DNA of 16,792 nt from a virus (IMGVR_UViG_2859810971_000005); one strand, 5' to 3'. Numbered from the stretch's first letter, positions 10,261 through 10,490 are shown. Translations and numbers: made by a program. Notes: generated from the letters alone by a model not told the origin.

Positions 10261-10490
10261 TGTCTACCTTATCTACCTTAGTGGCCCTCATGCCAGTAAT
10301 GGCGCTGCTTTCAGCGGGGTAGAGTGCTTTTATCCACTATCTACCCCGTGTCTACCTCCCTGTCTGATTCAGGTAAAATCAGGTAGAGAGGGTAGATAGT
10401 GGGTAGACAGTAAAAAAAGGCTATCTACCTAACTTAATGCACTGAATTAAATGTATTTTTCTTTACTCAGGTAGACAGGGTAGACAGCAA
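10261..10490. repeat. iteron array, putative replication origin (P4 ori/crr-like)
   Basis: At least 10 copies of the octamer TGTCTACC / GGTAGACA and close variants (ATCTACC, GGTAGAGA, GGTAGATA) in both orientations within about 230 bp, immediately downstream of the primase-helicase gene, with AT-rich spacers. Confidence 0.75.

Follow-up and report, generated by a model that had tools for sequence, protein, structure and literature searches.

The repeat array that follows the Rep gene in the analysed 16,792-nt stretch of DNA (hereafter the window) is most probably, with a probability of about 0.9, the vegetative replication origin (ori) of an EcCICFT073-type PICI, residing here in a capsid-forming PICI (cf-PICI) of Shigella flexneri. 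An origin of this kind, and nearly the sequence itself, is already known, its function having been established in 2018. Homology to that characterized origin, in sequence, in position after Rep and in attachment site, bears out a sequence-only reading of the window, in which the array had been proposed as the probable origin of a satellite island. Comparison with related loci and with phage P4 adds a 6-bp conserved core, a layout of two inverted modules and two conserved elements outside the repeats.

A cluster of short repeats follows the Rep gene

Counting TCTACC/GGTAGA hexamers on both strands of the window gave 13 copies, versus 3.69 +/- 1.78 expected from shuffled sequences (the largest shuffled count was 9, and none of 200 shuffles reached 13). 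Eleven of these copies fall inside 10263-10484 (222 bp) versus about 0.05 expected per 226-bp stretch, and the array is therefore not due to chance; the Poisson probability of such clustering, obtained by arithmetic from lambda, is of the order of 1e-22. The remaining two stand alone, at 488 and 16038, and a second TCTACC cluster is absent from the window. The cluster of repeats in both orientations that had been described at 10261-10490 is thus real. Its unit had been given as 8 bp, and the octamer TGTCTACC, with at most one mismatch, does find 10 of the 11 sites in the region (the eleventh, GGTAGAGT at 10318-10325, has two mismatches), but the conserved unit is a 6-bp core, which is invariant in loci down to 68% identity. 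The description of the spacers as AT-rich holds for the one proximal to Rep but not for the distal one (Table 1). The array, 10261-10486, occupies the 288-bp gap between two minus-strand genes (10501-12249 and 9934-10212), and it begins 14 nt past the Rep stop codon, the first iteron ending at 10486 and the stop codon lying at 10501-10503.

Table 1. Coordinates of the origin region and the adjoining genes in the window
Feature	Position	Strand	Description
Rep ('pri-rep') gene	10501-12249	-	582 aa
Iterons reading TNTCTACC on + strand	10261, 10270, 10338, 10349, 10422		
Iterons reading GGTAGANN on + strand	10318, 10382, 10391, 10402, 10470, 10479		
Proximal module, iteron pair	10470-10486	-	GGTAGACAG GGTAGACA on + strand; cores invariant in 10 loci
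Proximal AT-rich spacer	10430-10469		40 bp; 77.5% AT; presumed melting region
Proximal four-iteron cluster	10382-10429		GGTAGAGA, GGTAGATA, GGTAGACA, then inverted TATCTACC
Dyad centre	10357-10381		Axis 10373.5; 60% AT
Distal cluster	10318-10356		Inverted GGTAGAGT, then TATCTACC, TGTCTACC; mirrors 10391-10429
Distal spacer	10278-10317		42.5% AT; holds conserved non-iteron box 10289-10313
Distal iteron pair	10261-10277	+	TGTCTACC T TATCTACC; mirrors 10470-10486
A-tract/T-tract TTTAAAAAGTTTT	10232-10244		Beyond distal pair, outside the coordinates of the sequence-only reading
First gene downstream of origin	9934-10212	-	92 aa, phrog_1231; ribosome-binding site 10224-10229 bounds the origin region

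The homologous region of EcCICFT073 is a characterized origin

Gram-negative PICIs have their origin directly 3' of the gene for the replication initiator (Fillol-Salom et al. 2018, ISME J, PMC6092414), and this is where the region lies in both EcCICFT073 and the window, immediately 3' of pri-rep. The intergenic region of the window is 94.5% identical to its EcCICFT073 counterpart over 311 bp, with all 11 cores at the same places, and the preceding Rep is 90% identical to EcCICFT073 Rep (about 99% past residue 150, the N-terminal domain being the most variable part). The att site, phoQ...int-roxA, is common to the two islands: phoQ and roxA flank the CFT073 locus, which comprises int, an HTH regulator, DUF4222, Rep and the same gap; c1493 (DUF4222) is an EcCICFT073 gene according to the supplement of Fillol-Salom et al. 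2018 (PMC6092414). Matches to the intergenic region were present in 564 of 5426 complete E. coli genomes.

A thermosensitive plasmid with the EcCICFT073 pri-ori was kept at 44 °C, and pri-Δori and Δpri-ori yielded significantly fewer colonies, deletion of ori lowering the colony number without abolishing colonies (PMC6092414). Primer rep-3cNotI maps to 9298-9318 of locus L002, corresponding to window 10497-10517, and primer rep-2cNotI maps with a 1-nt gap (the supplement text and the genome differ by 1 nt) to L002 8992-9012, or about window 10191-10210. Because the primers bracket that interval, the published 'ori' deletion is the equivalent of window 10191-10496. The cloning experiment suggested in the sequence-only reading, replication of the cloned fragment with Rep supplied in trans, has in effect already been done on this 94.5%-identical allele, with the predicted outcome. 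Rep-dependent replication in cis is known for the CFT073 allele and is predicted for that of the window.

Further traits of such elements are found in the window. As expected for a Gram-negative PICI ori, iterons (the pair 10470-10486 and the cluster 10382-10429) flank an AT-rich segment, and as expected for PICI residence, int (15563-16792), alpA (15000-15188) and Rep are all on the minus strand. The two islands differ in that the host of the window island is Shigella flexneri, that lambda-type capsid and decoration genes in EcCICFT073 stand against a cf-PICI morphogenesis and terminase module in the window, and that the window island contains IS1 and pseudogenes.

It might also be considered that the repeats are transcription factor sites, forming an operator or promoter that controls the downstream morphogenesis operon, given that the array lies between two operon genes, with the second of them and its ribosome-binding site directly downstream, and that short repeated sites in both orientations are typical of operators. 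However, our scan found neither a sigma-70-like promoter on the coding (minus) strand nor a terminator after Rep (one weak promoter-like match on the + strand was within chance expectation), the homologous EcCICFT073 fragment acts as a cis replication element (PMC6092414), the layout matches that of P4 ori, a characterized origin, and the array tracks Rep across islands with four different downstream modules. Control of transcription is therefore a very unlikely primary role.

The origin consists of two inverted modules

Read in the sense of Rep and counted from its stop codon, the cores are located at +17>, +26>, +72<, +94>, +105>, +114>, +145<, +156<, +178>, +224< and +233<, the first 40-bp spacer lying between +26> and +72<, the dyad centre between +114> and +145<, and the second 40-bp spacer between +178> and +224<. 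Ten of the sites form pairs that mirror each other exactly about 10373.5. The identity of the 226-bp segment to its reverse complement is 56.6%, compared with 24.8 +/- 4.2% (highest value 39.8%) for 226-nt stretches elsewhere in the window, and the two longest inverted repeats are centred on 10373.5, a centre that inverted repeats I1, I2 and I9 all have; I2, which is 86% complementary, joins the distal and proximal pairs. The array is a 226-bp quasi-palindrome with its centre at 10373.5, and the mirror symmetry of the sites together with this self-complementarity shows that one module is present in it twice, in inverted orientation, each copy comprising two iterons, a 40-bp spacer, one inverted iteron and a group of three iterons. 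In the distal module the third iteron of this group is degenerate and forms a twelfth repeat (TGTCTGAT, 10361-10368); at the equivalent place, loci L085-L089 have a full third copy.

A near-consensus DnaA box (TTATCCACT) is located inside the array at 10330-10338. It is present only in the window, L001 and L002, and as the alignment reveals no conservation outside these close relatives, we treated it as a chance occurrence rather than a functional site. In P4, a perfect TTATCCACA adjoins crr (4281-4289).

Such a palindrome could in principle act as a nucleic-acid structure, a long imperfect hairpin or cruciform that serves in transcript processing or termination, or as a hotspot of recombination, and of which the repeats are simply the arms. 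The folding energy of the region as single-stranded DNA is -40.5 kcal/mol (z = -5.25 versus shuffles), and RNAalifold reports 10 pairs with changes on both sides. However, these 'compensatory' changes are the flanking dinucleotides, altered alike in direct and inverted copies, and they are what concerted evolution of the iterons is expected to give. Moreover, the spacers are not complementary (43% of positions outside the cores are self-complementary), a T-run terminator was not found, no Rfam family scored above threshold, and loci L075-L078, in which the modules are arranged inside out, break the hairpin register but keep the modules. The changes in direct copies, the non-complementary spacers and the inside-out lineages led us to reject a hairpin or cruciform as the primary function, which we regard as highly improbable. 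An Rfam scan of 9800-10800 at a permissive threshold returned miRNA-precursor models only, far below their gathering scores; these matches are explained by the palindrome and do not point to an RNA family.

Conserved elements extend beyond the iterons

Ten loci from E. coli and Shigella, 68-100% identical across the gap, were included in the footprint alignment. Invariant columns make up 55 of 66 core positions versus 36 of 160 non-core positions. The two bases 5' of the core vary by lineage, being TG/TA in the window and CC/CT in L005-L009, and they change in concert across all copies of a lineage. The origin-binding domain of L007 is still 97% identical to that of the window despite the changed dinucleotides. 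Either these bases are unread by the protein and homogenized by conversion, or one or two substitutions retune the specificity.

Two non-iteron elements were also invariant in the 10-locus alignment. One is a box at 10289-10313 (CA.G.CAGTAATG.CGC.G.TTTCA), which in the sense of Rep reads GC.GCG.CATTACTGG. Among 63 distinct regions downstream of Rep homologues, collected from IMG/VR and genomes, 47 contain its motif CATTACTG (Rep sense) at about position +200, and the motif is also found in L091, whose iterons differ and are of the P4 type. It is possible that this box is a host-factor or priming site. The other element is the A/T tract, about 17 nt past the last iteron pair. In 55 of the 63 regions, the pattern A4+[C/G]T4+ is found at a near-constant distance past the end of Rep, and it also occurs in Serratia, Morganella and both P4 crr repeats, and the EcCICFT073 equivalent of the tract is within the fragment removed in the published pri-Δori construct. 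The origin thus probably reaches the A/T tract, to about 10230, beyond the boundary that had been proposed for it, and the tract is possibly a second unwinding or bending element.

Rep is an SF3 helicase with an origin-binding domain

Rep is composed of an N-terminal part of 140 aa, D5_N, an SF3 helicase (DUF5906) and a C-terminal winged-helix origin-binding domain (residues ~486-577). Pfam detects D5_N, DUF5906 (SF3 helicase P-loop) and Pox_D5, and NCBIfam detects TIGR01613, the P4-family primase C-terminal domain. Residues 141-577 align with residues 326-762 of P4 alpha, covering the helicase and the origin-binding domain, at 40% identity. The helicase core matches 7OLA, the Rep of a staphylococcal island (E=8e-16), and residues 486-577 match 1KA8 (E=7e-7). 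1KA8 is the solved origin-binding domain of P4 alpha (Yeo et al. 2002).

The gene adjoining the array had been called a primase-helicase, and this is correct for the helicase and initiator part only. An alpha-type primase domain was not detected in Rep: residues 1-325 of alpha have no counterpart in the alignment, and primase PHROG profiles align on Rep only from residue ~136 onwards. PHROG matches of the first 140 aa (window 11830-12249) are confined to families of unknown function. AlphaFold, run on residues 1-145 as a single sequence, gave a low-confidence model (pLDDT 60.5) with a generic Rossmann-like beta-alpha-beta fold, and a Foldseek search with it against the PDB returned nothing at E <= 0.001. 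Because a primase domain is not detectable, the name 'primase-helicase' is best regarded as an annotation label, the evidence supporting a helicase with an origin-binding domain. We infer that Rep binds the TCTACC repeats.

The array accompanies Rep in diverse islands

We scanned loci of Rep homologues with 52-80% identity, and in every one of them the densest hexamer cluster is found just past the Rep stop codon, the array being kept directly after the stop codon even in homologues of 52-64% identity. TCTACC cores and the two-module layout are kept in L083-L089. In four IMG/VR loci (L075-L078, Rep homologues of 78-80% identity), the modules occur in the opposite relative order, ~0-300 nt past the Rep stop, so that the iteron pairs face the centre with about 90 bp between them and the A/T tract comes after the first module. 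The module, not the palindrome, is therefore the conserved unit.

Iteron type also varies. The iterons read GTTCAC in Serratia (L012) and L091, and GTTCAT in Morganella (L013). Within the GTTCAC/T group (P4, Serratia, Morganella and L091), the C-terminal domains are closer to each other than to those of the TCTACC group, which fits recognition of the iterons by the Rep C-terminal domain, in a grouping that is confounded with phylogeny. No iteron cluster was found within ~1.1 kb downstream of the alpha-like homologues (781-801 aa) of the IMG/VR loci L088, L090 and L093, and their origins must lie elsewhere. The length of these proteins could fit an extra N-terminal domain, such as the primase domain of alpha.

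Comparison with P4 and other replicons

P4 has its ori and crr at separate loci, both of which are required. Its alpha protein is a hexameric helicase that binds the type-1 repeats via the C-terminal domain (Ziegelin, Lanka, Calendar and colleagues, 1990s).

In the P4 GenBank entry NC_001609, type-1 repeats are located in ori at 9310-, 9320-, 9331-, 9353+, 9396- and 9406-, and again in crr, which follows the alpha gene directly. In the direction of alpha, P4 ori consists of a pair, a 35-bp AT-rich gap, one inverted iteron and three iterons. The proximal module of the window has the same orientations, and its start-to-start spacings (9, 46, 22, 11, 9) are close to those of P4 ori (10, 43, 22, 11, 10): the pair 10470-10486 is the counterpart of the P4 pair 9396-9413, the spacer 10430-10469 that of the 35-bp gap, and within the cluster spacings of 9, 11 and 22 correspond to 10, 11 and 22. 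Other likenesses to P4 include short 8-bp iterons in both orientations, an array directly after the replication gene, as for crr, an A/T tract adjoining the array, also as in crr, and an initiator that has the SF3 helicase and winged-helix origin-binding domain of alpha at 40% identity. As to the iterons themselves, GGTGAACA of P4 and GGTAGACA of the window agree at 6 of 8 positions, and the window core is TCTACC rather than that of the P4 type-1 octamer TGTTCACC.

There are also clear differences. P4 ori and crr are 4.5 kb apart, whereas the window has one locus with two adjacent inverted modules; the module in crr has another internal orientation; the array of the window is without type-2 repeats; and alpha carries a primase domain, unlike Rep. 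The match to the ori/crr arrangement of P4 that had been noted from the sequence thus stands for the position after the gene, which is like that of crr, but the internal layout is P4 ori twice, inverted, and there is no distant locus in the window.

P4 and PICI replicons were described in 2018 in terms of 'distant homology / evolved independently' (Fillol-Salom et al. 2018, PMC6092414). The close match in module layout and the 40% identity of Rep to alpha argue for a somewhat stronger statement, namely that the replicons of P4 and Gram-negative PICIs may well be homologous.

The origins of SaPIs and other Gram-positive PICIs resemble that of the window in being located immediately 3' of rep, in having iterons that flank an AT-rich segment and in having an initiator that is itself an SF3 self-loading helicase (e.g., PDB 7OLA), but their origin sequences are unrelated, with different iterons and a different origin-binding domain, and unidirectional operon organization is a trait of Gram-negative PICIs. 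Iteron plasmid origins (pSC101, R6K, RK2, F, P1) likewise have clustered repeats, an initiator of their own, an adjoining AT-rich region and possible copy-number control by pairing of arrays. However, iteron plasmids have direct repeats of 17-22 bp, whereas the cores in the window are 6-8 bp in both orientations, and plasmid initiators are winged-helix Rep proteins without a helicase that recruit host DnaA, DnaB and DnaC, whereas Rep of the window has an SF3 helicase.

The origin lies in a decaying capsid-forming island

The window is a segment of the Shigella flexneri chromosome with a decayed capsid-forming PICI at the phoQ/roxA site. It starts with phoQ, which is followed on the minus strand by terL (split), terS, HNH, head-tail connectors, portal, protease, capsid (split) and small ORFs, and then by the origin, Rep, the DUF4222 gene, IS1, alpA and int; this is the gene order of proteobacterial cf-PICIs (10.1101/2022.09.08.507074). 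A complete IS1 (insA/insB) is located at about 12773-13535, between alpA and the DUF4222/Rep genes, and cuts off the 5' end of a small ORF (12551-12781). S. flexneri SFBU1023 has a locus (L011) with 99.84-100% identity to the window but without IS1, and the insertion is thus strain-specific; it is probably also polar on Rep expression. The capsid gene is split into 7637-7966 and 7967-8842, which match positions 1-166 and 169-278 of the Phage_capsid profile, and terL is split into two overlapping ORFs (2553-3269 and 3098-4213). The cf-PICI morphogenesis module thus looks pseudogenized, and IS1 and the pseudogenes suggest that the island is defunct in the S. flexneri source strain.

It follows that the array may be an origin by descent that is inactive in the source strain, an intact cis element in a decaying island with poorly expressed Rep. 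The break of the operon between alpA and Rep by an IS1 that SFBU1023 does not have, and the splitting of the capsid and terL genes, speak for this possibility. On the other hand, the Rep ORF is of full length and 100% identical to that of SFBU1023, all 11 cores are intact relative to CFT073, IS1 is able to supply outward transcription, and packaging genes are not required for replication. We consider inactivity in this strain quite possible, albeit at less than even odds, and it is compatible with the identity of the element as an origin.

Among L001-L009 and the window, what follows the shared Rep-ori module is of at least four different kinds: a lambda-type capsid with a decoration protein (L001, L002, L004 and L006), a ClpP-protease/capsid fusion (L003 and L005), a capsid with terS (L007 and L008) and, in the window, a full cf-PICI head and terminase set. 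The presence of several downstream modules on one Rep-ori, and of the phoQ/roxA site shared with the classical EcCICFT073, suggests that 'classical' and capsid-forming PICIs exchange modules. As the island has a terminase and HNH of its own, the array might be thought of as a packaging signal (cos/pac) for its TerS/HNH/TerL, but the array is also found in islands whose packaging modules are unrelated or which have none themselves, and it tracks Rep instead, and in EcCICFT073 the cos sites were treated as separate elements, with cos.1/cos.2 strains (Fillol-Salom et al. 2018, PMC6092414). The probability of a packaging role is in our view close to negligible.

Proposed mechanism and implications

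A replication origin at this place would work as follows. Upon induction of the island by a helper phage, AlpA would switch on the leftward operon and Rep would be made. Its C-terminal winged-helix domain would bind the TCTACC-core iterons in the two inverted modules, and Rep would form SF3 hexameric helicase rings, the inverted modules perhaps loading two hexamers in opposite orientation. Rep would then open the AT-rich spacer 10430-10469, where melting is expected to take place, and possibly also the A/T tract 10232-10244, and would unwind outwards, leading to theta-type replication of the excised island. Primers may come from the host primase or from the N-terminal domain of Rep.

More tentatively, and with rather more doubt than confidence, we suggest that two P4-ori modules joined head to head make up the PICI origin, an arrangement turned inside out in some lineages and accompanied by a switch of the core between TCTACC and GTTCAC, that the palindrome loads two Rep hexamers oppositely, and that the box 10289-10313 and the A/T tract 10232-10244 are functional parts of the origin. 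If this is true, P4 and Gram-negative PICI replicons would form one homologous family and would not be independent inventions, the opposite loading of the two Rep hexamers would resemble that at the origins of SV40 and papillomaviruses, and the box and the A/T tract would be origin parts, for example a priming or host-factor site for a Rep without primase.

The assignment of the array as an origin provides a label for the cis-acting origin of a widespread satellite family and shows where the replication module lies in a degraded Shigella cf-PICI. What is added here is comparative, comprising the 6-bp core, the two inverted P4-ori-like modules, which are rearranged between lineages, the two conserved elements other than iterons, and a Rep in which no primase domain is detectable. 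These points are targets for dissecting the recognition and opening of origins by the SF3 self-loading initiators of satellites, and the change of iteron specificity from one lineage to another.
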